Assembly (NCBI RefSeq): GCF_902652985.1
Contig: NC_047020.1
Location: 14,322,001 to 14,386,000, forward strand
Direction of reading: 5' to 3'
DNA length: 64,000 bases
Origin: Pecten maximus
Taxonomy: Eukaryota
Shown: positions 11,466-58,912 of the stretch, in pieces
Layout of the letters: the number at the start of each line of letters is the position of its first letter
Numbering within the stretch: position 1 is the stretch's first letter
Translations under genes and position numbers: made by a program
The notes under the pieces: model-generated
Told to the model about the DNA's origin: nothing
Databases searched by the model: none
The model's input: only the letters and a program-made list of their open reading frames with translations

Positions 11466-13555
11466 AGTTATTAATAATCAGAAACTGTAGGAATTGTATT
11501 TCAAACTCAATACATGTTTTAACTTTTCCAGTTCTGAATAAGAATCTTCTTTTGTTCATCTTAATGGTTATTTGATAAGCTAGTATATTAGACTTGACGT
11601 TTAACCGACAGATATATTAACAAGTTTATAGAGATTGACAGAAGCTGTGACTTGGGTGGTGGGTACTGCACACTAACACGAACTACTAATTGATGTCACA
11701 CCCATGGTCCAGTTTTGTGTCAATCTTTTCAGATGGATCTGGAACTACAGTTTATGCTTGTATCAAAACTGGTAAAGCTAAAGATTTCATAACTGTAACC
11801 TTTTCTATGTATGAAAAGTTACGAAAGGACCAATTTCCAAGCAGTTTTTTTTTTTTATTGACTTTAGCTTTTTTTCTTCATATATTTTCCTTTTGAAAGA
11901 TGTATGTGATATACAATGATTCAAGTTTCGCCTGATGATTCCAAAGTATTTCTTTGGGTCAGAATTTCCAACCCACAACTGCGCCTGGATCCAATCCCAA
12001 ATGACCATACTGATTTTCAACCTTGACCTTGAACAATATTTGTTCATTGCAAACACGAAGTCCGACTAGGCTGATATCCAAACACTTTGATGACATGCCC
12101 TACACAAACACAGTTAACCGAGGAGTGATATCAAGCGGTGTCACAGTGTCTATTGTACATATAATAATACTGATTTGATCTGTGATAGAGTGAGTCTGTA
12201 TACTATCTCTAAAACATATCGGTACGGCCGTCATACATTATTGTTACTTTTCGTTAATCATACAATACTAACATCCTCACAAGTTTGTAGAAAATCTATG
12301 CTGACAATAAGTATGCTACATTTTGATCTTTTCATGGGTAATATTAAAGAATAAAAGTAAAGTGTAACATAATTTGCTTCACTAAGACATTTTTTTAGGT
12401 TAGCATTATCTTTACGTGAAGGAACGTTGGTAAAACCTTGACCGAAGGCGAGTGGTATCCGTGAGTGTATGTAGGTCTACACTGAGTCTGAACGTATTCA
12501 TACTAATTATCTCCAAATTCATAACTTTTGAGAGCGAATATTAGATATATCCCATGAACAGATAAAAATGTATGTCCGGTTTACTTGCCGTCATTGTTCC
12601 TATATGATTTGATTTCACCAAAACATGAAATGTATCGAGTTCAGGTTCGTCTCTTTGAATGCCGACATACAGAGCGACTACTAAAACTAATTTTCCACAT
12701 CGTTTATCATTACTTTATCTACAATGTCATAGCACGTGTCGGCGATTGATCAGAAGACGCCTTCCATTCCGGAACTCGTGGCTTCTTTTCTCCTTGTACT
12801 TTTTCAAGGATGTCGGTGATAAGCTACACTGTAGATATGTCGTTCGTATTTTGACCCTGTGGTATACAGTAGATTATGAGTCAGTATCAATACTTTTAGT
12901 CGGCGATATCGTCTTGTTTTTTTTTCCTGATTTGATCACATTAATCTGTGGCATTGATATCGTACATCTGAGGATCCTTGTTAATGTACTAGAAGTAGCT
13001 CTAAAATTTTCTGTGATGAAAATTTGTGGAATGATATCAATATGTCCAATTACGAAAATGGATTCCTTGAATATTTATATAAAGTGAATACATATTAAAC
13101 CGATAGTTTGAAGCAAATATATTATATGGGATAATGGAGGCACAACATTTCCAAACGTTTTCCGAGAATCATTTCCTCTTACAAATGGAATGAAAAAGAA
13201 TTAAAACCATGGTCAATCTTCAAATCTCTAAAGACAATTTTGGCTTGTTTGACACAAAAGCATATATCAGTTGTGAGATATATTTCTTGCTACACGAGAT
13301 ATATGGATAAATGTGGAATGGACCTCCATCTGAATGTACATAGTAGGATCACCTCAAAGACAATGACGCCAAGCAAGACAGGAATTGAATTTTAAAGGTT
13401 CGACGACCATAAGAAAGGCATTGACTCGCATGTTACCCATTATATTAGTAAGTACATGTATACAATAAAATAAAACTTAACTAAATAAACTACCGATTAT
13501 CGCGAAATCCGTTTACAAGATACATGTATCTGCTATTGTGTAATTTTCCTAATCT

Positions 13556-14150
13556 TATATTCTACCATGTTTGCTATGTAACGCCAGTTTTGATTGGTTT
13601 AAAACCATGTATTATTTTCCAATAACCCACGCTCGTGCCAATAATACACGGTCGTGAGTCACGGCTGTTACAATTTTATAAAAGTTACTATAGTGGGCTA
13701 ATGGGTTAGTCTTTCAATAAATTTTTATCAAGACGCGAGTTCGAATCCTACGGAGGCCCCCCTTTATTTCTTTTTTTTTATTCTTTTTTTTTTTATTTTC
13801 AAAATCAATGCCATATGATAGATGCTCTTATCGTAGTACTGTATTGCCTGTATATTTCATCAACAAATAATGCAACACTCAAGAAATAAATTACAAGGTT
13901 TTCTCGGGGTTTCTTTGCTGTTTTTCTATTAAAAAGAGGTCGATCTCAGAGCTAAACAGTACATGGTAGAATAGAAATAATCAACTTTGACTCGTGTATT
14001 GTTGCAGGATATACAACTCGGACTCGGATATTTTGCAATTTTAATTAATAACTCAGGCCTGCGGCCTTCGTTATTAATTTAATTGCAAAATATCCTCGTC
14101 CTCGTTGTATATCCTGCAACAATACACGAATCATCGTTAATTATTTCTTA
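13556..14150. mobile_element. Non-autonomous element with subterminal inverted repeat and ~85-bp-stem terminal hairpin (Helentron/HINE- or Crypton-like)
   Basis: tattctaccatgt (13558-13570) is inverted at 13961-13973, followed by a long palindrome at 13974-14147. Confidence 0.65.
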
Positions 14151-15427
14151 AGTAAACCACGACATATTAGGTGTGCTCTTAGAACTTAAAATTTACCCAT
14201 AGCGAATGTTCTGTGGTCAAAATTCCGGATATTGTTTCCGTTTGGAGTTTCCCGAAAGTACTTACTCTGTCGTCATACAAAGGTGACAGTGTGTGGAGAA
14301 TGTAAACACTTCTATAAATAGCATATAGGTAGTTGAGCATTAACACAAGGACAGGTAGGTGTATTCTTAAGTTATTTACAAGGAAAATTCGCTGAGGGGT
14401 TAAATGTAGGCGTATATTGTCTATTTCTCCGGTATAGTTAGACAATGTACGTATCACACGTTTAGATAAACAAACTGTGTTTCTGTTTCCCGATAACATG
14501 TATGTGTGTACGTCAGGTAGGTGTAAGTACACACATGTGTAGGCACCCGCTCATACTTATACAGGTGAGTATCTCGTTATCTATATAATACCTCCATATC
14601 CTTACCGTCGATGTATACAGTTTGACAATCTGAATTTAACTGACATCAAATTATGAAAACGCATCAGTTGACAGAAGTGTGTGCGTTCATAAACTTGTAT
14701 TTATTGTCTGTACCATAGGGATCTGATAAGTCGAGGAAATGTTTTTGATACACGTTACATAGTGCCATGGTGAATCTATGTTCCGTGCTTTGTCAACGCC
14801 TAGAAAAGCAGTAATAGCTAAGCTGGCAACTGGAGTTTCATACATTTGCAAATATTCATTTAGTCCACGACGGGTCAGATGTCTCATCATTTATATTCCA
14901 TTTTGAATTCTTTAATATATAATAGCACGGATGTGAAATGTCAATTAATATTATCATTTGGTTATTTTTTTTGTTTTGTTCCGGTTATAGATGTCTACGG
15001 TGTCTTAAATATTAATATATCGATCAACTATACAGCGTGTAGCCCTAAGGAAGTCGGCCATCAGTAGTGTGTATATGCTACATTCAGACAGGAAGTCGGC
15101 CATCAGTAGTGTGTATAAAGTAGCCTATGACAATCCAAATAAACATCTCAATTACAAAGTACATTTCAAGGCACATTAACATATTACGTTAATCACAGCC
15201 AGAGGTAAATTACTAAGGATATTTTGTCAGTGTAAAATTCCTATACCAAAATAGATAGTGGTATACGTTTTAAACGAGGACGATTGCCAGTTTTATGTTA
15301 TTATTACTAGCTAAATAGTATCGTCCTCAAGAAAATCATCTCTTATTACATGGTACTTTTCACTTAAAAAAAATCAATCGCTATCTATATGATATCAATC
15401 ATCTGTACTCCACTTTGATACCCATCA

Positions 15428-15925
15428 TTATTGTGTAAGTACGACGTAATGTCCTTCAGTACTGTGTATGTACGACGTACTGTCCCATCAGTAATGTGTA
15501 TGTACGACGTACCGTCCTTCAGTATTGTGTATGTACGACGTACTGTCCCATCAGTATTGTGTATGTACGACGTACCGTCCTTCAGTATTGTGTATGTACG
15601 ACGTACTGTCCTTCAGTATTGTGTATGTACGACGTACTGTCCTTCAGTATTGTGTATGTACGACGTACCGTCCTTCAGTATTGTGTAAGTACGACGTACC
15701 GTCCTTCAGTATTGTGTATGTACGACGTACTGTCCTTCAGTATTGTGTATGTATGTTGTACTGTCCTTCAGTATTGTGTATGTACGACGTACTGCCCTTC
15801 AGTATTGTGTATGTACGACGTATTGTCTCATCAGTATTTTGTATGTACGACGTACTGCCCTTCAGTATTGTCTATATTTACGATGTACCGTCTTATCAGT
15901 GTGTATATGTACGACGTACTGTCAT
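15428..15925. repeat. 31/33-bp minisatellite, about 15 copies
   Basis: Unit cagtattgtgtatgtacgacgtactgtcctt. Confidence 0.95.
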
Positions 15926-16655
15926 TTCAATTGTATTGATATTGGTGACCTACCATTCACTCGATTCATATACCTTTATTGAACACATATAGTAATATAC
16001 TATTATGATTCCATAGAAATAAACACAAGAACATACATTTGTCATGAAAAGTTTTCGTTACTTTTTCCCCAGGCAGTCCATATCTTAAATTCAGAAAAGT
16101 CGAGACCTAAACTTCATGAAATATACCACGTCCGAAATGGTAGGGTCACTTTAAACTTTAAAACATTGTAATGAATATTTTCAACCTGCTACCTTGACAG
16201 ACACGATACACAGTGTATGTAGACCAGTTGTGCATTCGAGCGAATAAAGAGTTAAGCATGTTTACATTTCAAAGTTATACACGTAAATACACCATGATCT
16301 CAATCTACGAATAAGCTACACAGGTTTCGTTTTACATTTGTGCGATATTGTCACCCGTTTAAATTGTATGTGTGTTCCAATATTTACCTTGTAGTTTCGG
16401 TTGGGATAACTACATTTTAATTAACAAGTATTAAGGTTCCGGCTACGTCTATGAAGGGAAATCGATTGAAATTTAAAGATACCTCCGCCAAAATTGTTAT
16501 TCAAATATTACGTTTAGTGACAACCCAGATTCAAGTAAGCATACAAGGCACCGAAATATCGTTTGGAGATAATTTTTCTATTATGAATTCCTGTTAACTA
16601 TTTTAAACTCTTTTTCCAGGTATGAACACGTCTCCGGTATTCTAGATCTAGTGCC

Positions 16656-18092
16656 ATGGCGAAGAACATATCTGCTGGGATACAGAGTCGAATTCAGTTC
16701 TTCAGCGACCCAGGCTGGACGTGTAAGAGATGTGGCGAAGGAAATAACTTTGAGGAGCGGTTCTGCAAGAAGTGTGGTCGCAGAAATGTGGCCCACGAGA
16801 GACTTCAGAAAAGCATCAAACGGGCGAGTTTGGATCGTACAACATGGCACTGTGCCTCATGTACATTCATTAATCAAGGAATTCACCAATTCTGTGAGAT
16901 TTGTAACACGGCGCGAAGTGGCCTGACCAACAAGGGCACACCTAGACCTGCTCAGGAAGATGGTATGTTTGATGACAATGCGAAATGTAACACTATCGGA
17001 CCGGGTATGATGGACAATATAACTGACAATGAGGAGGTCAAACTAAGAGGTAAACATCGTGGTAAAGACGAAGATGACAGAAAGTCACGTTTAAGTAGAT
17101 TTTTCGCTTTTATCACTGGTTCTTCAGAGAAAATGCCGGAGGCTGAAAGTCGCCATGAGAAGGGGGAAAAGAAAAAATCAAAAGGCGGTGTAATACGAAA
17201 CAGTAAACTGTTTCAGTTCTTTGTCGGTGATAGCAGCAAGTCTTCTGATGAAGTGAAGACAGACGAAGGAACAAGACAAAGTACTTTTTACCTGGATGAC
17301 ATAACGGAGGAATTCGAAAATGAAAGCGATAAACAACACGCAGATGTATCACAAAGGACTTATATAAGTGAATGGAAACAAACAAAGTTTGAGGCAAGAC
17401 AGCCGGACAAAAGATCGAAAGAAAAGGAACTCGGAACCATTGATCTAGTAGTCAAAACGCCTTACAAACATATAGCGGAAAAGGAACAAATCGGTTTAGA
17501 TTTTGATAAAAAACGACTCGACAGAATCGATGGAAGACAGAAAGCAGGAGTTGTGAAAGACGAGAAACCTCGTAATATTTCGCCATCACCAAAGCGAAAA
17601 GAAGGGACCGGTATTGAGGGAATAAAACGGATGTTCGAAAATAAGTTAGAAGACAGGCAGCCCTCACCTAAAACAAGAACTGCTGTAAATGAAAAGGATA
17701 AAGGGAAGGCAAATGCAGGAAAAAAGGATGAAAAAATCAAGGAAAAAAATGAGAAGAAGAAAGAAAAGGCCGATAGAAAAACAGACGAAAAGTCCTTGTT
17801 CTCAATGCAAAAAGACAAAGAAGCGAGTAAACTGAATGACAATAAACCAGAAGCGGATAGAAAGAAGAAAAGATGGCCATGTAAGTCGTGTACGTACTTG
17901 AATGACGATTTGGCACAGCGATGTCGGATGTGTGATACACAACGACCGAAGATAGAAGCAAACAGGCCCTCAAAATTGATGAAAAGACGCATGCTAAAAA
18001 GTGGACGCAGTTTAAAAATAGCTGATTTACAAAAACAAGAAGAAAAGGAGGCACACAAAAAATGGGTCAACATCACATACTTTTGTAGAGAG
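16656..18092 (+). CDS. CAPN15: Calpain-15/SOL-like protease, coding exon 1 (3 RanBP2 zinc fingers + charged linker)
   Basis: Acceptor ttttccag before 16620; Kozak gccATGg; W-x-C-x2-C...N...C-x2-C fingers (WTCKRC, WHCASC, WPCKSC); GT donor after 18092. Orthologue versus paralogue not resolvable here. Confidence 0.88.
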
Positions 18093-18341
18093 GTATATAA
18101 ACTACGAATTTTATACTTAATATATAAATCAGTGTAGATCAAATATGTATATAGCCTCTTTTACTGGAAATCATGGTATTATTATCAAGTCCGATATTTA
18201 TAGCTAGACAAGAACATTTTATGGTTTAGTGAGATAGACATAAAGTCGAACAGCATTGTTAGTAATTTATTTTACAGTAATGTTATGGGTATCAGCTTAT
18301 GCAAACGTTTATAATTAATGGTTTGATATTGTATATTACAG

Positions 18342-32980: not shown

Positions 32981-35900
32981 TATCATCATCATCCTACTCC
33001 TCATCATCATCATCGGTTCATCATCATCATCACCCTCATCACCATCGATTCATCATCATCATCAAAAGAATCACACTTAATCATCATCATCATCTATCAT
33101 GATATCATCATCCATACTTAAATCAATATAATTATCATTTTTTTCATCACAATAAAACATTATCGTCCTTATCATCACACAAAAAACATCATCCTCATCA
33201 CCATCACTTTAAGCTAACATCTATACAGACATCATTCTTGTCATCATCCTATTAAGAGAAATTATCCTTTTCATCGTAATTATCATCAATAACATCATCT
33301 TACATTCATCATTCAATCACAACAATTGAGTATCATCATCATCTTTACATTTTATTATCAAGTTTATTTTCATCATCATATGATGTGGAGTTAATCATAA
33401 AGAACTTGAACCACAAGCCTCACATCTACTTACATCCTTTACATATTAACACACATACATAACCTAACCTAAATGTATACAGAGTGAGAGAGAAGCAGAC
33501 AGACGCACCAGCACACAGACAAGACAGACAGAAAGACACACACATAGACACAGACAGACGCACCATCACACAGACAGACAGACACAAACACATAGACACA
33601 GACAGACACACGCATAGACACAGACAGGCGCACCATCACACAGACAAGACAGACACTCGCACAGACAGACGCATACTCGGACACACAATCACACAGAGAA
33701 CACACACACAGAGACAGACAAACACGACAGAAGCATGGGAGAAAATTTCTTTAAATGGTAAAAATAAAAAGTATTGGAAAGGAGCTAGAACAGGCGATGT
33801 CAGTCTTTGGGGATATAAAGCTATATATGCAAAGAGGAACAATCTTTTTCAGATGACTATAGATCTAGGACAGGTTTCCATTTCTTCCAATTAAGTTCAA
33901 ATTGCCTTTTAATTTTCTCACTTTTACTGTAATTTATATATTGTTGAATCAAAAAATGATCTTTGATGACATTAATAAGCGCATTGAGATTTAAAGAGTT
34001 GCTGAGACATCTAGTTTTATAAATATAATGCTTCATAAGAATTAAAATTTCGTTATCAACATTACTGCAGTACTGTGATACTATACCAAACAGGAAGGAT
34101 TCTTTATTATAAGCAAATGGAATTAAAAGTGCATCAAGTAATGCTTCAAATCTCTGTAATAGTGACTGAACCTCTTGGCATTCCCATAAGCAATGCACTA
34201 TTGTTTCACGCTCCATACAACATAAGTTACATAAAATACTAGGACTTAAGTTTATTTTAAAAAGAAAAGTGTTTGTTACCAAAATATGGTGTATAATTCT
34301 CACTTGGAACCATTGTAATTTAGAACTTTTGGTAACTATAAAAGGAAGTTTGAATATTTTGGCCCATTTATTTTGATCAATAATGAATTCTTGGTTCCAT
34401 TTTCTTGTTCCAGTAGGTATGGATATTGGCGCAATAAGGCATTTGTAAAAATCAAACCTTTTCACTCTTAAAAAATATGTCAAATAGAAAAGGTATAAAA
34501 GGCTGTTGAGGTCTTTGTATCAGGAAATCATTTTTTTTCAAAAAGTGTTTGATAGCTGAAACTAGTCCATGGTATTGGAGAAAATTTGTGTTTATAGTTC
34601 GAAAATTATGTCTGAACTCTCCAAAAGAAAGAAAAGCTAAATTATCTGAATCTTTAATTAAATCATTTATTGTTAATATGCCCACATCAAACCAGTTTTG
34701 ATAAAAAAAAACATACTTGTTGTTTACCTTGATATCATTATTATACCAGATGGGTGATTTTAAAATTGAGTCTGGTTTTGGAAGCCTAATAGAATCAGAA
34801 TTATTAAGTCTATTTGATGATTTAAACACATCCCTCCAAAAAAAGTTTTTACAATTGGATCTACACAAATCAATATGTTCCTTTCCACAGTTACATAGTT
34901 TTCTAAAATCAACATATGTATTTAAAATTAATTTCCACTTACCAGATGAGTGAAATAATCTTCTTACCCAACCTAACTCCAGAGAGTCAATAAAAGAATG
35001 AACATCAATCATCTTTAAACCCCCATCAATATAATCTTGAATAACATCTTTTTTATTTATTTTATGGCATTTACTATTCCATTAATTTAAATAAAAAAAC
35101 AGAGAATTTAACTGGGCAATCAACTTTTCTGGAGGGTTTGGCAAAGTAATGAACAAATAGTTAAGTTGTGAAATCAACAGAGATTTAATAATATTAATTT
35201 TACCTAATGGTGTCAAATTCCTTCTTTTCCATAAGTTAATAAGAGATTTAAGTTTTACAATTTTTTGTTAAAATTCATTTTAGAAATTTTATCCAGATCA
35301 ACAGAAAATTCTATCCCTAAGAAAGTGAACTTGTGTTGTCCCCACAGCAGATTTACTTCAGGCAAAAAAGTGTCTTCACTATATTTCCTACTTCCTATCC
35401 ATATCACCTGAGATTTATTAGAATTAATTCTTAGACCAGATATCTTAGCATAAGTAGTTAGTTCAAAAATAGATTCTCTCAGCGACTCTTTAGATCCATC
35501 CAATATCAGACCTGTATCATCTGCATACTGTACATTTAGAATAGGAGAATTTTCAATATTAATTCCCTTTATGAGATTATTATTTTTAATTTTTGCTGCT
35601 AAAACTTCGGCACAGAGAATAAAAATGTATGGTGCGATTGGATCTCCTTGTCGACATCCACGTTGAATCTTAATATGTTTTGATATGCTGCCACTTTGAT
35701 TGATAGATGCACTTACATTATTATGAAGAGTATTTATCCATTTCCTTATATCTTTCCCAAAGTTGAAATAGCCTAGAACCTTATCTATGAACGCCCATGA
35801 AACCGAATCGAAAGCTTTTTAGAAATCTACCATCAATAACATTCCTGGTATGTTGTGTTCCTCTGCATACTGCATTACATCATAGACTGTACGAATATTT

Positions 35901-37477
35901 TCCTCTATATATCTACCTGATAAAAACCCTGTCTGATCCTCATTAATAATATTACCCAAAACTGTTCTTATACGATGTGAGATTACCCCAGAAGCTGTTT
36001 TATAAGTTATATTTAAAAGTGTGATGGGTCTCCAATTTTTTAAAAAAATGTCGAGGTTTATCTCCCTTGGGAATACAAGTAATTATACCATGTCTTTGTG
36101 TTACTGAACATTGACTGACTGAAAACCCATAATTTAAAGATCGAACAACAAAATGACCTAAATACTTCCAAAATACTTTAAAAAAAACTCAGATGTGAAA
36201 CCATCAGACCCTGGACTTTTATTACTTTTCATCTCTTTTAGTGTTTCCCAGCTTCATCAAATGTTATAATACATGTACCCTCTAGACTGTCAGATTCATG
36301 ATTACTTAACCTTGACATGTTACAATTTTGGAGATGTGCTTCTAAATCTATATTTTCCACTTCCATATATCTATATAAATCTTCATAAAATGACTGTACC
36401 TCTGATAAAATGTCTTCTTGTTTCGTTATAAAATGATTATGTTCTGTCTGAATTTTTGGAATAATTTTGGAAGTATAATTTCTGTTTTCAAGATTAAAAA
36501 AGTAAGAAGTAGGTTTTTCTCCCTCCTCTATCCATTTTGCCCTAGATCTAATGATACTACCTCTAACCTTTTTCAAACGAATAGACTCTAATTCTTTTCT
36601 TTTCTCATCTTATTGTGCATGATCTGGATGTTTCAGCCTCAGTAATTGCTATGAATTTCTTAATATTTTCCTCTCTGAGATTTAACTGCTTTTTCCTGTA
36701 AGAAGAATATGAAATAGATTTGCCCCTTATTTCCATTAATAAAGTTTCTAAAAAAAGTTGATCATTTAAGAGGAATTGAATATCACAATCAGGAATAAGA
36801 TTTAGAGAATCATGGTTTTAAACAGGTAGACAATATTGTAATTTAATACTGTCAATACATTTTTTTACTAAATCAAGAAAGTCTGATTCATATAATAAAG
36901 AGTTGTTAAATTTCCAAATACCTTTCCCTTTCTTAAATTTGTTAAAAGTTATAGTTAATAGAGGGGTAGAGTGGTCAGATCTATAACCTGGTTCTATTGA
37001 TGACATATTTACACTTGACGAGAGATTCGGAGACAAGAAAAAAATCTAGTCTGGCCTGCTTTAATTGATTAGCACGCCTCCAAGTATAACGCCTAGTATC
37101 AGGGTGGTGTTCCCTATAAATGTCAATAAGATTATTATTTTCAATAATTTCCAATACCTTTTCCCTCGCAGTACTATTATTTACAAATCTATAATTATTA
37201 TCATAATCTAATGATGGTTTTAAAACTAAGTTAAAATCCCCACATATGATAATGTTCTCATTTCCAAAACTATCCACTATTTCAGTTACTTGATTGTAAA
37301 AATCTGGGGTATCCTGCTTTGGACCATATAAGGAAATAAGAGTTGTCCTAGACCCATCAATATCAATATCAAGAGCAAGAACATTACCCTGTAAATCGCA
37401 CTTTTCTCTATGTACCTTGGCCTCGAAATTATTGTTTAAAAGGATTGCCACCCCACGTGAATTTAATGAGCCGTGGG
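32810..37477 (-). mobile_element. L1/Tx1-clade LINE ORF2 (APE endonuclease + RT + C-terminal Zn motif), 5'-truncated and frameshifted
   Basis: SRGVAIL, IICGDFNL, ARLDFFL, YRSDH (APE); RGCRQGDPIAPYIF and QYADD (about 35514-35662); CNLC...ETIVHCLWEC; stop at 33857; microsatellite-rich 3' UTR; A-rich tail at about 32810-32850. Confidence 0.92.
32940..33730. repeat. (CAT)n and (CAGA/CA)n microsatellites in the LINE 3' UTR
   Basis: catcatcat runs 32940-33380; acagacagacac runs 33490-33730. Confidence 0.9.
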
Positions 37478-38009
37478 TTTTGTTCAATGTCTGACACCGC
37501 CTTTGTAAGCCATTTAGCATGTATACAGGTACGGTAAATACAATTCAGTATGGCCAGACACCGATATCACATGATTGAATCAAATGACTTTTCTTGTACT
37601 GTCACATGACTCTCATAAACAAAATGGCTTCCAACATGGGAAAATCGCCGATCTGTTAGACAATCTAACTTCATTCGCGAATTTAAAGTCATTATGAGAT
37701 CGGAATTCGCAAAATTATGTATTCGCGAATAAGTCAAATTAGGTGAGTTCGTGAAATTAAGTACTCGCGAAATATAAGTGATTTACAGTATATCCCATGA
37801 ATTCTCTCTCCATTCAACGTATATATTTATAGACAATATAATACATGTATAATCCTTACTATTGTTTATAGTATGCAAGTATTGGCTTAGTTATTGCTCG
37901 AGATATTTGCAATTGCTTTATGCTAGATTGATAAAAAGACAATTGATCTGATTATAATGAAAAAGAATGATCAAAATGATTACCAGGTAGTAAATATTTA
38001 TTTGGACAG

Positions 38010-46922: not shown

Positions 46923-47016
46923 TTTGGTAGGACTAGAACGTTCACACGAAGCGACATTATTAGAATTAATGTATAATAAGGACATATAGATCTCGTAAGA
47001 ATAACGAACTGTAAAC

Positions 47017-50000
47017 ATGGCCAACACTGGCAATAGCGCGCCCATTGTAGTTCAAGTACCTTCAAACCTCCCTGTACCAGCGGCATTGGAGTTGCGAGGC
47101 AATCTTTGCTCGAACTGGAAGAAATTCCGCCGAATTTGGGACAATTACGAAATTGCAAGCAGTCTAATCAATAAAACCAAGGAGCTGAGAACAGCTACGT
47201 TACTAACGTGCATAGGGCCCGACACGTTACAAATATACGATGGTCTTACGTTCGACAACAGCAGTGATAAGACTGACATAACCAAAGTGCTAGAGAAATT
47301 TGAAAGATTTTGCATAGGGCAAACAAATGAAACATATGAGCGGTATCTGTTCAACAACAGAGCACAGGACCAAGGGGAGACAATCGACGCATACGTAGCG
47401 GCATTAAGGTCACTAGCAAAAACATGCAATTACGGTACATTAGAAGAGAGTCTTATTAGGGATAGAATAGTCATGGGTGTCCGAGAAAACGCGACAAGAA
47501 AGAAACTGCTGCAAGATCAGTCTCTGACATTAAAAAAATGCATAGACATCTGTCGGTCTTTTGAGAAATCATTTCAACATATGAAAGACATAACTAGTGA
47601 GGAAGTTAAGGCATGTGGAAAGAAAGAAAGCAACCACTCTCAGTCACAGGAAAAAACACGGAACAGTGCAGGAACACACAAGAGACAGTCCCAGAAATCC
47701 ATGATAAGCTGTGATGCATGTGGTTTCCGTCATGATGAGGAGCGATGTCCAGCATGGGGAAAAGTATGTGCAGCTTGCGGGAAATTGAATCACTTCGCAA
47801 AAAAATGTAGGTCAAAACCTCGCCAAGGGTATGGGAATCAGAATAGGAGGAACAGACCAAAGGTATATCAGCTGGAGGAAGTGAATGAAAGCTCAGATGA
47901 AGAGTTTATATTTACGGTGCATAAGAAGGATGTAAACTCAATAAAACACGTTGGTCAGCCTAATAAGATTCACACTATCATTGACATAAATGGGGTGTTG
48001 GTAGAATGCCAGCTGGACAGTGGATCAACCGTCAATGTGTTGCCTAAATCAAAGTATTTACAAGTGTTTGATGACCCTCAATTGGAAAAGTTGTCAGAGA
48101 CGGACATGACCCTAGTGATGTTCAATCAATCAGAGATGACACCAGTTGGAGTCAGACGAGTGCAGGTCCGTAACCCGAAAAACCGGAAAAAATATTCAGT
48201 GGAATTTGTAGTTGTCGACCAAACAGTAAAGCCTATCCTAGGAGCACGTGTGATACAGGCCATGAATCTGATTACTGTGAATAAACATAACTTATATCCG
48301 AAAGCTGAGGCTCCGAAGGAGGAAGTCCTACAGGCATCAACAACCGACAACACCATGTTTGAAGGACTTGGGAAGTTAGCAGGCAAACTCCACCTCGAGG
48401 TAGACCCCACTGTGCCACCTACCAAAATACCAGTGAGACGAATACCAGTGTCATTGAAAGATAGGGTCCAGGACGAACTGATGCGACTAACAAACCTTGG
48501 TGTGATAACACCAGTTACCACCCCAACAGACTGGATTTCATCGATTGTGGTGGTTAAGAAGCACAATGGGAACTTGGGACTCTGTATTGATCCCAAACCG
48601 CTAAACAAAGCACTCAAGAGGAATAATTATGCGATGCCGACAATTGAGGACATTCTTCCAGAGCTAAACAAAGCACGACTGTTCTCTGTAGTGGATGCCA
48701 AGGACGGGTTCTGGCATATTGAGTTGGATGAGGAAAGCAGTTATTTGACGACATTTGGCACGCCATGGGGCCGTTATCGGTGGATAAGAATGCCTTTTGG
48801 TATCTCCCCAGCGCCAGAAGAGTTTCAACGTAGGCTGGATGAAGCACTGGAGGGTCTAGAGGGAACCAAGGCAATACATGATGACATCGTTGTGTTTGGA
48901 TGCGGTGACACTGACGCAGAGGCAAGGCAAGATCATGACCGGAAACTCCATGCTTTGTTCGACAGATGCCGCGAGAAGAATATCAAACTGAACAAGGAAA
49001 AATTAAAGCTTTGTCTAAGTTCTGTCACATACTTGGGCCACGTAATCTCAGAAAGAGGTTTAGAAATGGATCCGGCGAAGGTCAAGGCCATCACTGAGAT
49101 GCCCACTCCCAAGGACAAGGCAGGCATACAACGTCTACTGGGAATGATCAATTTTGTGCAAAAATTCGCACCACGGCTGTCTGAGCTGACTTCTCCTTTA
49201 CGCGACCTTTTGAAAAAGGACTCTGAGTTTGTTTGGGATGAGGCTGTACATGGCCAAGCATTTAGTGAGATAAAGGCAACACTATCCGACACTCCGGTGT
49301 TGAGGTATTTTGACCCAAAGAAACAGACAATATTACAGTGTGATGCATCGGAGTACGGGCTAGGAGCCTGCCTCCTCCAAGAAGGACACCCAGTGGGGTA
49401 TGCGTCAAGAGCGCTTACGGCTACCGAGTGCAACTACGCCCAGATCGAGAAGGAGCTGCTAGCTGTGGTTTTTGGAATGACAAAGTTTGAGCAGTACACA
49501 TATGGAAACAAAGTGATTGTCGAGTCTGATCACAAACCGTTGGAGATTATCCACAAGAAGAACTTGTTCAGCACTCCAAAGCGATTACAACGGATGCTAC
49601 TCAATCTACAGCGGTTTGACTATACAATTATCTACAAAAAAGGCACACACATGTACATGGCTGATACATTGAGCAGGGCATTTTTGCCGTCAACTGATGA
49701 AGAAAGGCGAAATATTAGTCACAACATAGAAGTGGAACAGGTAAATGGTGTAAAGCATCTGGCAGTATCACCCGAGACTTTGTGTAGGTTACAACGAGCC
49801 ACCAAAACTGATACCAATCTTGCAGAGCTAATGTGTGTCATTCGCAGGGGCTGGCCGGACAGCATGGAACAACTTTCTCTAGAAGTAAAAAAATACTTCC
49901 CATTTCGAGAGAAGCTAACGATCCAGAACGGGTTGGTCTTCAAGAACGACCGTGTCATAGTTCCATTCTCGGAGCGCCAAAACATGATAGAAAGGGCGCA

Positions 50001-51114
50001 TTCCAGTCATATCGGCCTTCAGGGATGCTTGCGAAGAGCGAAGGAGTCGTTATATTGGCCAAACCTGTATTCAGATTTTGAAAAACATATTCAGGCATGC
50101 AAGACTTGCAATACTTACTCAGCTGAAAATAGCCGAGAGCCCATGATACCACACGAAACCCCGAATCGGCCATGGGAGAAAGTAGGTGTGGATTTGTTCC
50201 ATACAGCTGGAAAAGATTACCTTCTCACTGTGGACTACTATTCTGATTTTGTTGAGATTGACCGCCTCCATGACAAGAAGGGCAACGAGGTCATCAGAAA
50301 GTTAAAGTCTCATTTCTCGCGGTATGGGTTACCATGCATAGTAATGTCTGACAATGGTCCACCATTCAACGGAAAACAATTCTCAGATTTTTCGAAAGAA
50401 TATGAATTCCAACACATCACTAGTTCACCAAGATATCCACAGTCCAATGGTAAGGTGGAAAATGCGGTGAGAACTGTAAAGCGAATTCTGGAAAAATCAA
50501 GGAAGGATCGACGGGACCCTTATCTTGCTATTTTGGATTGGCGGAACACGCCAGGAGAGATAGTGAAGTCATCCCCAGTGCAAAGACTGTACGGTAGAAG
50601 GACTAGGACTTTGCTTCCATTAACAACGCCATTATTGGAGCCAAGCACAATTCCTACGTCGGAGACAAGGAAAGACATAAACCAAAGAAAAGGAAAAGAA
50701 CAACATTACTACAATCGCGGCACTAAGGCGTTAGCTGAACTAATGCCTGGAGAAACGGTCAGAATGAAACCGACAGAACCAGGGAAGGAATGGACTAAAG
50801 CCCGTGTAAAGGGAAAAGTCAACATTCGATCATACAAGGTTCAAACTGAAGAGGGTTCGACTTATCGGAGAAACAGGCGTCATCTCCATAAGACTCCTGA
50901 AGTTTTCACAGAGGATGATGGTCAGTTAAATGCGACACCAGAAGGAGATGTTCCAGACACACCGAATGTCAACGAGGACCAGGCACCTCCCACTACTGAC
51001 CATGAGGAGCCACATGCAGAGGTCACGCTCAGGAGGTCCAATCGTGAAGTGAACAGACCGAATTACCTGAATGACTACGTGTGCATCTTGAATCGCGACC
51101 GAAAACAACAGTGA
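47017..51114 (+). CDS. Gag-Pol polyprotein (1365 aa)
   Basis: Two Zn knuckles (CDACGFRH...C, CAACGKLNH...C), protease LDSGS, RT MPFGI...IHDD, RNase H CDAS, integrase HSSH...CKTC plus D-D-E (VDLF, SDNG, KVENA); PR-RT-RH-IN order is Gypsy. Confidence 0.97.
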   Translation: MANTGNSAPIVVQVPSNLPVPAALELRGNLCSNWKKFRRIWDNYEIASSLINKTKELRTATLLTCIGPDTLQIYDGLTFDNSSDKTDITKVLEKFERFCIGQTNETYERYLFNNRAQDQGETIDAYVAALRSLAKTCNYGTLEESLIRDRIVMGVRENATRKKLLQDQSLTLKKCIDICRSFEKSFQHMKDITSEEVKACGKKESNHSQSQEKTRNSAGTHKRQSQKSMISCDACGFRHDEERCPAWGKVCAACGKLNHFAKKCRSKPRQGYGNQNRRNRPKVYQLEEVNESSDEEFIFTVHKKDVNSIKHVGQPNKIHTIIDINGVLVECQLDSGSTVNVLPKSKYLQVFDDPQLEKLSETDMTLVMFNQSEMTPVGVRRVQVRNPKNRKKYSVEFVVVDQTVKPILGARVIQAMNLITVNKHNLYPKAEAPKEEVLQASTTDNTMFEGLGKLAGKLHLEVDPTVPPTKIPVRRIPVSLKDRVQDELMRLTNLGVITPVTTPTDWISSIVVVKKHNGNLGLCIDPKPLNKALKRNNYAMPTIEDILPELNKARLFSVVDAKDGFWHIELDEESSYLTTFGTPWGRYRWIRMPFGISPAPEEFQRRLDEALEGLEGTKAIHDDIVVFGCGDTDAEARQDHDRKLHALFDRCREKNIKLNKEKLKLCLSSVTYLGHVISERGLEMDPAKVKAITEMPTPKDKAGIQRLLGMINFVQKFAPRLSELTSPLRDLLKKDSEFVWDEAVHGQAFSEIKATLSDTPVLRYFDPKKQTILQCDASEYGLGACLLQEGHPVGYASRALTATECNYAQIEKELLAVVFGMTKFEQYTYGNKVIVESDHKPLEIIHKKNLFSTPKRLQRMLLNLQRFDYTIIYKKGTHMYMADTLSRAFLPSTDEERRNISHNIEVEQVNGVKHLAVSPETLCRLQRATKTDTNLAELMCVIRRGWPDSMEQLSLEVKKYFPFREKLTIQNGLVFKNDRVIVPFSERQNMIERAHSSHIGLQGCLRRAKESLYWPNLYSDFEKHIQACKTCNTYSAENSREPMIPHETPNRPWEKVGVDLFHTAGKDYLLTVDYYSDFVEIDRLHDKKGNEVIRKLKSHFSRYGLPCIVMSDNGPPFNGKQFSDFSKEYEFQHITSSPRYPQSNGKVENAVRTVKRILEKSRKDRRDPYLAILDWRNTPGEIVKSSPVQRLYGRRTRTLLPLTTPLLEPSTIPTSETRKDINQRKGKEQHYYNRGTKALAELMPGETVRMKPTEPGKEWTKARVKGKVNIRSYKVQTEEGSTYRRNRRHLHKTPEVFTEDDGQLNATPEGDVPDTPNVNEDQAPPTTDHEEPHAEVTLRRSNREVNRPNYLNDYVCILNRDRKQQ

Positions 51115-51627: not shown

Positions 51628-51959
51628 GTGTCTACTTCATGTCTATTTCAGTAGCCTAAGACTACTGGATTCCCCTGATATATCAGACCGCGTTCCTGAC
51701 AGTTTACTGCTAAATTATTCACCAGTAAGGTTACATCAATGATTGCCCTCGTTTCATATGGTCGAGGTTTTACCCCCTTCGAAATAATAAAATATTGTTT
51801 GATGCTATTCATATTTGGAAACATGATTAGATATGAAAACAACAAAACACTTTCATCAAAATATAAATGCATTACTAAGAGCTGATGCCTTCGAGTAATT
51901 GTTGCGACAATGACATCATTAAGATAATTAACAACATAAAGTTGGCACACTGAGATAAC

Positions 51960-53387
51960 ACAGCGTCAACACGCTGGGCAATCTACACCACAGCGTCAAC
52001 ACGCTGGAAAACATACACTATGGAGTCAACACGCTGGAAAACATACACTATGGAGTCAACACGCTGGACAACATACACTATGGAGTCAACACACTGGAGA
52101 ACATACACTATGGAGTCAACACGCTGGACAACATACACTATGGAGTCAACACGCTGGACAACATACACTATGGAGTCAACACGCTGGACAACATACACTA
52201 TGGAGTCAACACGCTGGGAAACATACACTATGGAGTCAACACGCTGGACAACATACACTATGGAGTCAACACGCTGGAAAACAAACACTACGGAGTCAAC
52301 ACGCTGGACAACATACACTATGGAGTCAACACACTGGACAACATACACTATGGAGTCAACACGCTGGAAAACATACACTATGGAGTCAACACGCTGGACA
52401 ACATACACTATGGAGTCAACACGCTGGACAACATACACTATGGAGTCAACACGCTGGACAACATACACTATGGGGTCAACACGCTGGACAACATACACTA
52501 TGGAGTCAACACGCTGGAAAACATACACTATGGAGTCAACACGCTGGACAACATACACTATGGAGTCAACACGCTGGACAACATACACTATGGAGTCAAC
52601 ACGCTGGACAACATACACTATGGAGTCAACACGCTGGACAACATACACTATGGAGTCAACACGCTGGGAAACATACACTATGGAGTCAACACGCTGGACA
52701 ACATACACTATGGAGTCAACACGCTGGAAAACAAACACTACGGAGTCAACACGCTGGACAACATACACTATGGAGTCAACACACTGGACAACATACACTA
52801 TGGAGTCAACACGCTGGAAAACATACACTATGGAGTCAACACGCTGGACAACATACACTATGGAGTCAACACGCTGGACAACATACACTATGGGGTCAAC
52901 ACGCTGGACAACATACACTATGGAGTCAACACGCTGGAAAACATACACTATGGAGTCAACACGCTGGACAACATACACTATGGAGTCAACACGCTGGACA
53001 ACATACACTATGGAGTCAACACGCTGGACAACATACACTATGGAGTCAACACGCTGGACAACATACACTATGGAGTCAACACGCTGGGAAACATACACTA
53101 TGGAGTCAACACGCTGGACAACATACACTATGGAGTCAACACGCTGGAAAACAAACACTACGGAGTCAACACGCTGGACAACATACACTATGGAGTCAAC
53201 ACGCTGGACAACATACACTATGGAGTCAACACGCTGGACAACATACACTATGGAGTCAACACGCTGGACAACATACACTATGGAGTCAACACGCTGGACA
53301 ACATACACTATGGAGTCAACACGCTGGACAACATACACTATGGAGTCAACACGCTGGAAAACATACACTATGGAGTCAACACACTGA
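51960..53387. repeat. 30-bp minisatellite, about 47 copies, with higher-order structure
   Basis: Unit tggagtcaacacgctggacaacatacacta. Confidence 0.97.
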
Positions 53388-53479
53388 ACTTACACCTCCA
53401 CATCATCATAACATTTCAACGCATACGATAGCGTCAATACACTGGCGAACATCAACAAAGAGTACATTAAGACAGCATA

Positions 53480-54170
53480 CAATACAACGTCAACACACTG
53501 AGACAGCATACATCATAATGTCAACACTGAGACAGTATATATCATAATGCCAACACTGAGACAGTATATATCATAATGCCAACACAATGAGACAGCATAT
53601 ATCATAATGTCAACACTGAGACAGTATATATCATAATGCCAACACTGAGACAGTATATATCATAATGCCAACACACTGAGACAGCATACATCATACTGTC
53701 AACACTGAGACAGTATATATCATAATGCCAACACTGAGACAGTATATATCATAATGCCAACACACTGAGACAGTATATATCATAATGCCAACACTGAGAC
53801 AGTATATATCATAATGCCAACACACTGAGACAGTATATATCATAATGCCAACACACTGAGACAGCATACATCATACTGTCAACACTGAGACAGTATATAT
53901 CATAATGCCAACACTGAGACAGTATATATCATAATGCCAACACACTGAGACAGTATATATCATAATGCCAACACTGAGACAGTATATATCATAATGCGAA
54001 CACACTGAGACAGTATATATCATAATGCCAACACACTGAGACAGCCTACATCATAATGTCAACACTGAGACAGTATATATCATAATGCCTACACTCTGAG
54101 ACAGCATACATCATAATGTCAACACTGAGACAGTATATATCATAATGCCTACACTCTGAGACAGCATACA
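53480..54170. repeat. 29/31-bp minisatellite
   Basis: Unit gagacagtatatatcataatgccaac(ac)act. Confidence 0.95.
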
Positions 54171-57755: not shown

Positions 57756-58409
57756 CTGAAAGGAAGTGTTCATATAAGGATTTCGATGACGGAAACAACA
57801 AAAGAATTCCAATGTCTGAAATAACATAAGGGTTTCGAAGTCTTGAAACAACAAATACAAACGCGCCGTTTTTATGTCATTTGTATGGTAGTCTGCGCTT
57901 GTAAGCGATTTGTTTTAATGTATATCTCTTGTTTTCCCCTCACATTTATAATCTTATGTATATGTTTACTACTGATAACACTTTTTTATATATGTGATAT
58001 GTCTACAATTCTCACAAATTGATATCATACCTCCTTGAAGTGGTATCACACACCCTAAACAGTGATATCACACACCCTGTACAAATCCTTTTTTTGCCAT
58101 TTCGACCTATTTTTACCGCTTTTGATGTGAAAATTAACGAATTGTTGAATTATTCATCTTCTATATCAGCATAGACTATCAATAATGTACATGAAAATAT
58201 TGAAATTCTAAAACTTTATGTAAGTTTCTGAACAATGCCGTTTCCGGATTTTGCTTTACTTATTAGTTTGTGTGAAACTTGTCATCTGCGTAAATATAAA
58301 CAACGTTGACGACTGTATGAATAAATTAAATGATGTATTTAAGGTTCTTTTTTTTCTTGTATTTTTTTTAAATATGATAAGAATACATTGAAAAAATTAG
58401 CGTTTATAA

Positions 58410-58527
58410 TATGACCATTTTGATATCACACCTCTTATCAGCCCGAGAGTCTTGATATCAGTCCGAGTTGCAAAGGCCCGATGGACTCGAGGGCTAGTAA
58501 GGGGTGCGATATCAAAATGGTCATATG
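58410..58527. repeat. ~118-bp palindrome (end of an intronic non-autonomous element)
   Basis: atatgaccattttgatatc...gatatcaaaatggtcatat with ~43-bp arms. Confidence 0.85.
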
Positions 58528-58912
58528 ATAATCTCTAGATTTTTTAATGTATTCTTCAGTAAGGTCACAATATGCAGATGCTTAAATGTTGCTCTGAGTT
58601 TGTTGTTCATGGTTTATCTACCCCGGACAAGATATAGAATCTCATCCTCGGGGTACAATTCGTTTAACTTTAAACATACGCAAGGCCTACGGAATGTATG
58701 GTCTTCTAAAGGCATAAGTAAAGGATTCATATTACCCGTCTTACCCTCGAAGTGATGACGATTCCTTATCTATTAACCCTACTAAACCATTTAAACCCCT
58801 TTTCGGTAGAACGTTACTGATTTACAATGATGTGTTAATCTAGAACAAGAGCTTTTGTCTCCGTAATTCGTTATTTTTCTATTGTTATATGGATAACAGT
58901 AGTACATATTAC

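Follow-up and report, generated by a model that had tools for sequence, protein, structure and literature searches.

Animal Cryptons (CryptonA and CryptonV) have a single DUF3504 ORF, many non-autonomous derivatives, no long terminal inverted repeats and no target duplication. The accessible text of Kojima and Jurka (2011, PMC3212892) reports that they lack terminal repeats, direct repeats included, and contains neither "hairpin" nor "palindrom". Terminal direct repeats of 4-6 bp are present in CryptonF and CryptonS, the fungal and oomycete groups. No experiment has yet demonstrated the transposition of a Crypton, and the prevailing model assumes a duplex circle, as stated in the accessible part of a 2026 review (PMC13565253). 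In the Crypton literature that we searched, with Repbase, Dfam and most subscription journals outside the search, no description of a hairpin end was found; curators of repeat databases may already know of it. The Eulor repeats are annotated as hairpin-like. Human Eulor5 and Eulor6 have been classed by their termini as ancient non-autonomous Cryptons, and hairpins are not mentioned in the available text of that article (PMC5753468).

Recombination through a folded or single strand has been described in other systems, given here from the available portions of the cited articles. In CTXphi, the attP used by XerC is a folded strand of ~150 nt that unites two separated palindromic sites, and one exchange is followed by replication (PMC5357621, PMC4792948; see also PMC3442271); the enzyme belongs to the host, the target is the fixed dif site and the DNA is that of a phage. 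In the attC sites of integrons, recombined by IntI, the structure is conserved and the sequence is not, the strand is chosen by unpaired features, and a single exchange is resolved by replication (PMC2727003, PMC4792948). The tyrosine recombinases of the bacterial SE elements circularise one strand only and the donor is not emptied; these elements have four core genes and a fixed target, and "hairpin" does not occur in the text searched (PMC9345347).

Here we follow up a preliminary description of a long hairpin in a stretch of 64,000 nucleotides of Pecten maximus DNA (the window). The hairpin is the right end only of a larger, non-coding element of 592 bp, and we conclude, with a probability of about 0.9, that it is the end of a non-autonomous Crypton. 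The element shares with animal Cryptons the traits listed above, the single DUF3504 ORF being found in its relatives, and differs from them in its subterminal inverted pair, its long terminal hairpin, a defined target dyad and junctions with the apparent signature of one exchange. Its junction shares one base only, and the 4-6 bp terminal direct repeats of the fungal and oomycete type are absent. Unlike CTXphi, it has an enzyme encoded by its own family, a degenerate target and GA/GA loops in the stem; unlike attC, it is inserted genome-wide.

The 592-bp element and its terminal hairpin

Copies of the element align from 13559 to about 14155 (Table 1). Contigs from runs X1, X2 and X5 (samples of the same organism, each of the three from a different study) carry an empty allele, exact apart from one ambiguous base, in which 13558 is joined to 14151 and 592 bases with the ends AT..TA are skipped; this makes the insertion a precise and polymorphic one, with no duplication visible in the contigs. 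These empty alleles may simply be pre-insertion alleles. Searches of the 918-Mb genome with exact patterns, whose counts are lower bounds, gave at least 595 copies with the usual core and at least 33 matches to the inverted pattern. Left ends were full in 72 of 74 cases, and the 11-mer that forms this end is likely a recombinase-binding element. The plus strand of the element corresponds to the sense orientation of the recombinase gene in the autonomous relatives described below. A MITE of a DDE transposon was rejected as an explanation, given that the hairpin makes up one end only and that there is no target duplication.

The body of the element includes motifs which we take to be an A-box remnant and a B box. 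These tRNA-like boxes may stem from the captured head of a SINE; at the five loci submitted to ARAGORN, the element body yielded no tRNA gene. A second subfamily with the same ends (L008, L092, L117) has another body and is devoid of these boxes.

Table 1. Coordinates, within the window, of the element, its parts and the adjoining target halves
Feature	Position	Strand	Remarks
Probable non-autonomous Crypton-type element, 592 bp	13559-14150	+	Copy alignment, empty allele, at least 595 exact-pattern copies
Left-end 11-mer, ATTCTACCATG	13559-13569	+	Sharp left boundary; crossover at its first base
Inverted copy of the left-end 11-mer	13962-13972	-	Directly against the hairpin, on its inner side
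tRNA-like A-box remnant, B box (13739-13748) and T run (presumed)	13686-13800	+	In the element body
Terminal long hairpin	13973-14148	-	DNA folding; more stable on minus
TC/TC site 1	14018-19/14102-03		CGAG/CGAG on minus
TC/TC site 2	14024-25/14096-97		CGAG/CGAG on minus
TC/TC site 3, loop-proximal	14053-54/14068-69		CGAA/TGAG on minus
C-GCA-G triloop, GGCC-GCA-GGCC	14060-62	-	
Right end, spacer side	14143-14150	+	Terminal TA; abuts the target half ARTA
Left target half, host DNA	13551-13558	.	A at -7; -5 to -2 variable
Right target half, host DNA, AGTAAA	14151-14156	.	

Folded as DNA, the segment 13960-14160 forms a single rod of -66.3 kcal/mol on the plus strand (z -16.9) and -70.1 kcal/mol on the minus strand (z -18.0), and none of 200 shuffles was as stable on either strand; this confirms the long hairpin with GA/GA loops on the minus strand and a GCA triloop that the preliminary description had recognized. 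The predicted gap between the two strands is only ~4 kcal/mol. When read on the minus strand, the three TC/TC sites are all GA/GA in a Y-GA-R context; NMR work has documented the sheared pairing of CGAG/CGAG blocks (PMC10085684), and the stability of GNA triloops has been reported (PMC3201870), according to the accessible parts of these articles. Of the three sites, that at 14053 had been placed correctly and the other two 9-10 nt too high. A fourth site, where TT at 13986-87 faces TC at 14134-35 (GA/AA on minus), had been considered decayed; TT/TC is found there in all 28 copies inspected, out of 30 loci, and it is therefore not a decay of the window copy. The distance from the GA/GA sites to the loop is 5-60 bp, and they are remote from the cut; these symmetric loops are therefore not positioned like the extrahelical bases of attC, which adjoin the binding boxes in a structure that also has the I2 helix.

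The conservation of these sites, a point raised by the preliminary description, was followed in the 24 copies with a largely intact hairpin among 30 chosen by their body sequence. TC was retained at the six positions in 17, 19, 18, 16, 22 and 17 of the 24; the sites are family-wide, and in these body-selected copies they are among the most variable positions, in part because one arm has been converted to the complement of the other. The copies often carry converted arms, inversions or deletions, which indicates that the palindrome is unstable. The inverted cores vary in extent. When they were placed on the tree, 18 inverted rows required 14 changes, the mean of the shuffled trees being 16.5; the flips are somewhat clustered (28 of 500 shuffles were as low), with one enriched subclade, and in an autonomous family three inverted rows require three changes. 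The core inversions appear to be mostly independent in origin, and this test, a weak one, suggests that loops decay where they stand and that copies spreading in one orientation restore them. Replication of hairpin ends by a flip/flop mechanism, in the style of parvoviruses and poxviruses, was rejected in view of the 595 normal against 33 inverted-pattern matches; among the 30 loci retrieved with the inverted pattern, five turned out to be head-to-tail dimers, and in the others the inversion varies in length.

Target site and one-sided junctions

The right flanks of the insertions start with A in all 82 cases and have T at +3 in 81 of them. On the left, A occupies -7 in 63 of 73 flanks and T occupies -8 in 47 of 73, the bases from -5 to -2 being random; in an independent sample, A was present at -7 in 18 of 26. 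Nine autonomous families, when pooled, show the same spacing, with A at -7 in 32/46 and T at +1 in 60/61. The target is a TA-N6-ARTA dyad, that is, two inverted halves around a 6-bp centre. Duplications of 4-8 bp were found in at most one of 73 cases for any length. At L117 two copies stand head to head, 4 nt apart, with both symmetric target positions occupied. Insertion of Cryptons at the ends of other Cryptons was observed at L117 (around 1070-2740), L056, L151, L069, L070, L080, L084 and L086, and gives rise to head-to-head, head-to-tail and mixed-family junctions.

All 69 right ends that could be scored keep the spacer of the element on the right (TCTTA in 66, TCTTG in 3; 65 exact through +1); an anchor outside the spacer was used for scoring, and 19 of the 96 inner anchors gave no scorable right end and were not counted. 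In comparison, only two of 72 left ends have the element spacer in front of them, both in head-to-tail dimers; none of the 70 non-dimers shows this. The crossover is always at the right edge of the spacer, and this one-edge pattern reads as the signature, at the genomic level only, of a single strand exchange. As described in the accessible text of PMC5357621, tyrosine recombinases form the 3'-phosphotyrosine at the edges of a 6-bp centre and the protomer on the right half cuts the bottom strand; a crossover at the right edge thus makes the minus strand, which carries the GA/GA loops, the likely exchanged strand.

The textbook model, in which a Crypton is excised as a duplex circle and integrates by two exchanges, the spacer mismatch being repaired later and the hairpin being incidental, is the published proposal (PMC3212892; PMC13565253, in their available parts), and it is in keeping with the existence of empty alleles, subject to the caveat given above. 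However, after a second exchange many copies would be expected to have the donor spacer at their left end, against the 0/70 and 69/69 counted here, and the model has to regard as incidental a hairpin layout common to many families. We disfavour it and consider it very improbable.

Recombinase-coding relatives

A search of the same genome for DUF3504 gave 327 candidates, of which 150 were scored. The autonomous elements found measure about 1.8-3.3 kb and are organised at their ends like the 592-bp element: an 11-15-mer at the left end, the ORF, the inverted 11-15-mer beside a hairpin, and a right end in TA. The end sequences are unrelated between families despite this common layout. The two ORFs tested match DUF3504, QRICH1 and Phage_integrase in Pfam, and a search of the PDB gave weak matches only, to XerA and an integrase (E 0.043 and 0.15). 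The R, R, H and Y motifs were present in 20 of 22 ORFs, all pre-selected by two such motifs, and intact recombinase ORFs were found, for instance, in L134, L161 and L165.

To the position of the hairpin we devoted 60 chosen loci, each of 7.5-9.7 kb. In 34 of them the start of a hairpin falls in the 1.55 kb that follow the recombinase gene on its downstream side, 22 of these hairpins having GA/GA on the antisense strand and 5 on the sense strand; for two upstream windows of equal size the figures are 5/60 and 4/60, and among background flanks of 900 bp a hairpin was present in 6 of 120. Matches resembling the recombinase also form clusters at G000:C17 26.36-26.40 Mb and G000:C10 3.73-3.92 Mb. 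Four loci from such clusters (L183, L189, L207 and L208) had no downstream hairpin in the stretch examined, and the clusters are possibly domesticated or tandem DUF3504-related genes.

The location just downstream of the ORF would also suit a hairpin that acts as RNA, in terminating or processing the recombinase transcript, its bubbles breaking up a long dsRNA; both strands fold strongly as RNA (-100 and -114 kcal/mol), and the loops are often 24-30 bp apart. Yet the hairpin is kept in non-coding derivatives, its stabilising loops are on the antisense strand and it is fused to the recombination end, so that we consider such a role highly unlikely.

GA/GA loops recur in unrelated Crypton families and favour one strand, which bears out the earlier proposal that they are not random. 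In 55 hairpins, taken from 90 loci of which some are redundant (L159 and the second copy in L161 were excluded), there are 69 2x2 loops: 49 GA/GA on the antisense strand, 8 in the reverse orientation and 12 of other types. On the arm that was scored, 48 of the 49 antisense loops have the Y-GA-R context. In these Crypton hairpins the first loop is located 2-6 bp from the tip and the second usually 24-30 bp further. When the hairpins are grouped by sequence, 12 of the 22 clusters have GA/GA on the antisense strand, one has the reverse orientation and nine are without GA/GA. The idea of an element built so that one strand folds while the duplex avoids a perfect palindrome stands in part: the strand bias is present, but folding of that strand is a prediction with a small gap of ~4 kcal/mol, and with nine clusters free of GA/GA, some with near-perfect arms, avoidance of a palindrome does not hold for every family. 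Near-perfect arms are common in a second recombinase subgroup, whose ends (TA, then A) are those most similar to the ends of the 592-bp element. L181, L192, L194, L197, L199, L206 and L210 have near-perfect arms of 73-80 bp with GAA or GCTA loops and no GA/GA, and offer a ready-made comparison group. The recombinase tree contains a single clean-arm ORF, twice, and thus it allows nothing firm on whether GA/GA maps to clades.

A BLAST search against 120 recombinase loci (L031-L060, L121-L180 and L181-L210, many of them redundant) returned no coding element with the exact ends and matched only inserted non-coding copies (L153, L159/L183). For the second subfamily, 30 loci were checked for length; the copies in which both ends were found measure only 575-736 bp, and none is an autonomous element with the exact ends. 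The search for an autonomous relative called for by the preliminary description was therefore successful for the enzyme, found in Cryptons of the same layout, and not for the exact ends, which did not appear among the recombinase loci searched. Given this, the assignment to Cryptons rests on the common layout. Autonomous relatives with that layout encode a single tyrosine recombinase with R-H-R-Y, and the 592-bp element, without long terminal inverted repeats and without target-site duplication, has in common with them the layout, the TA end and the target dyad. Of the two enzyme classes proposed at the outset, it is the tyrosine recombinase (Crypton) that is upheld by the DUF3504 ORFs and the common target dyad.

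The other class, an HUH enzyme, would make the element a non-autonomous Helentron or Helitron2-type element moved by rolling-circle replication. Helentrons have short subterminal inverted repeats and a terminal hairpin; Helitrons and Helentrons have TC...CTRR ends in an AT target, or insert in TT. The 11-bp inverted pair, the terminal hairpin and the lack of target duplication resemble the Helentron layout, and the missing exact recombinase-coding partner among the loci searched would also fit. Against this, the target is a spaced dyad and not TT, since the base preceding the element is A in 27, C in 10, G in 1 and T in 35 of 73 cases, and tyrosine-recombinase ORFs are found between ends of this layout, with the TA end and the same target. 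Helitron-type ends are ruled out by the ATT...TTA ends and the N^ARTA target with TA upstream. We regard a Helentron as very improbable.

Candidate integration route and other sequences in the window

The head-to-tail dimers provide a natural end-to-end junction. In the fold of the junction of L080, pairing between the inner 11-mer and the left end lengthens the stem beyond a bulge of 2 nt; the end-to-end junction has predicted fold values of -79.5 on the minus strand and -74.6 on the plus strand. By eye, the bulge is of 2 nt here and in five other families, and of 1 or 0 nt in four. Dimers were rejected as proof of circles: their junction would look no different, and an insertion next to a left end is enough to produce them, as illustrated by L056, which joins the right end of one family to the left end of another.

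On the basis of this junction fold and of the likeness to CTXphi attP, attC and the bacterial SE elements, we lean towards a route with a folded minus-strand circle, one exchange and resolution by replication, to which we give slightly better than even odds. A Crypton recombinase supplied in trans would cut the minus strand at both ends and join them into a circle, a release that is purely hypothetical. The released strand would then fold, aided by the sheared GA/GA pairs and the GCA loop, as suggested by the strand bias of GA/GA and by the junction fold. Across the junction, the inner 11-mer would pair with the left-end 11-mer and rebuild a duplex binding site with a 2-nt bulge. A single exchange of the minus strand would join the circle to the TA-N6-ARTA target, one matching base being sufficient, and replication would resolve the junction into one filled and one empty chromatid. 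In a tentative generalization, which we hold with somewhat less than even confidence, animal Cryptons would be single-stranded DNA "peel-and-paste" elements, each released by its tyrosine recombinase as a one-strand circle, selected and stabilised by sheared GA/GA pairs, with one exchange into a loose TA-N6-WNTA target. The small predicted difference between strands, the nine of 22 clusters without GA/GA and the variation of the bulge from 2 to 0 nt all speak against the folded strand.

The main rival keeps the Crypton end and replaces the donor by a double-stranded circle that is limited to one exchange because the spacers mismatch. A precedent is VGJphi, which, according to the available text of PMC5357621, integrates in double-stranded form via XerC alone, so that a single exchange is possible without single-stranded DNA. 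The hairpin would then be a cruciform, a replication signal or a protein-binding structure, and the GA/GA loops would tune its folding or limit the instability of the palindrome. The one-sided junction rule fits this proposal equally well, clean-arm Crypton families exist, and the arm conversions, inversions and deletions of the copies are those of an unstable palindrome. It leaves unexplained, however, why 12 of 13 polarised clusters have their GA/GA on the strand that is exchanged and why an inverted left-end motif is placed so as to complete the stem across the junction; we consider it a serious but rather unlikely alternative to the folded minus-strand circle.

The exact ends, the target rule, the likely cut strand, the candidate substrate and the intact recombinase ORFs provided here make the Crypton mechanism directly testable by biochemistry. 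Were the folded-strand route correct, tandem sheared GA pairs would gain a biological role in DNA, eukaryotes would possess an equivalent of the recombination of integron cassettes and of CTXphi, as well as an integrase that inserts single-stranded DNA without a scar, and the result would bear on the ancestry of DUF3504 genes and of the vertebrate Eulor5 and Eulor6 repeats. Should the folded-strand step fail, a well-defined end structure and a target rule for animal Cryptons would still stand.

A second, older long hairpin is located at 58379-58556 of the window; it ends in TA and has, on the plus strand, a single clean GA/GA loop. It has 28 candidates in the genome, diverged and mostly 70-90% identical over part of their length, and is probably the decayed end of another Crypton family. 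Elsewhere in the window, an open frame of 1369 aa at 47005-51114 (minus strand) looks by eye like the gag-pol of an LTR retrotransposon, and broken frames at 33857-37544 (minus strand) resemble, also by eye, a LINE endonuclease and reverse transcriptase. The open frame of 503 aa at 16626-18137 (plus strand) has CxxC motifs like those of zinc fingers and is probably a host exon. Tandem repeats are present at 15422-15930, with a unit of about 31 bp, and at 51940-53547, with a unit of about 33 bp.
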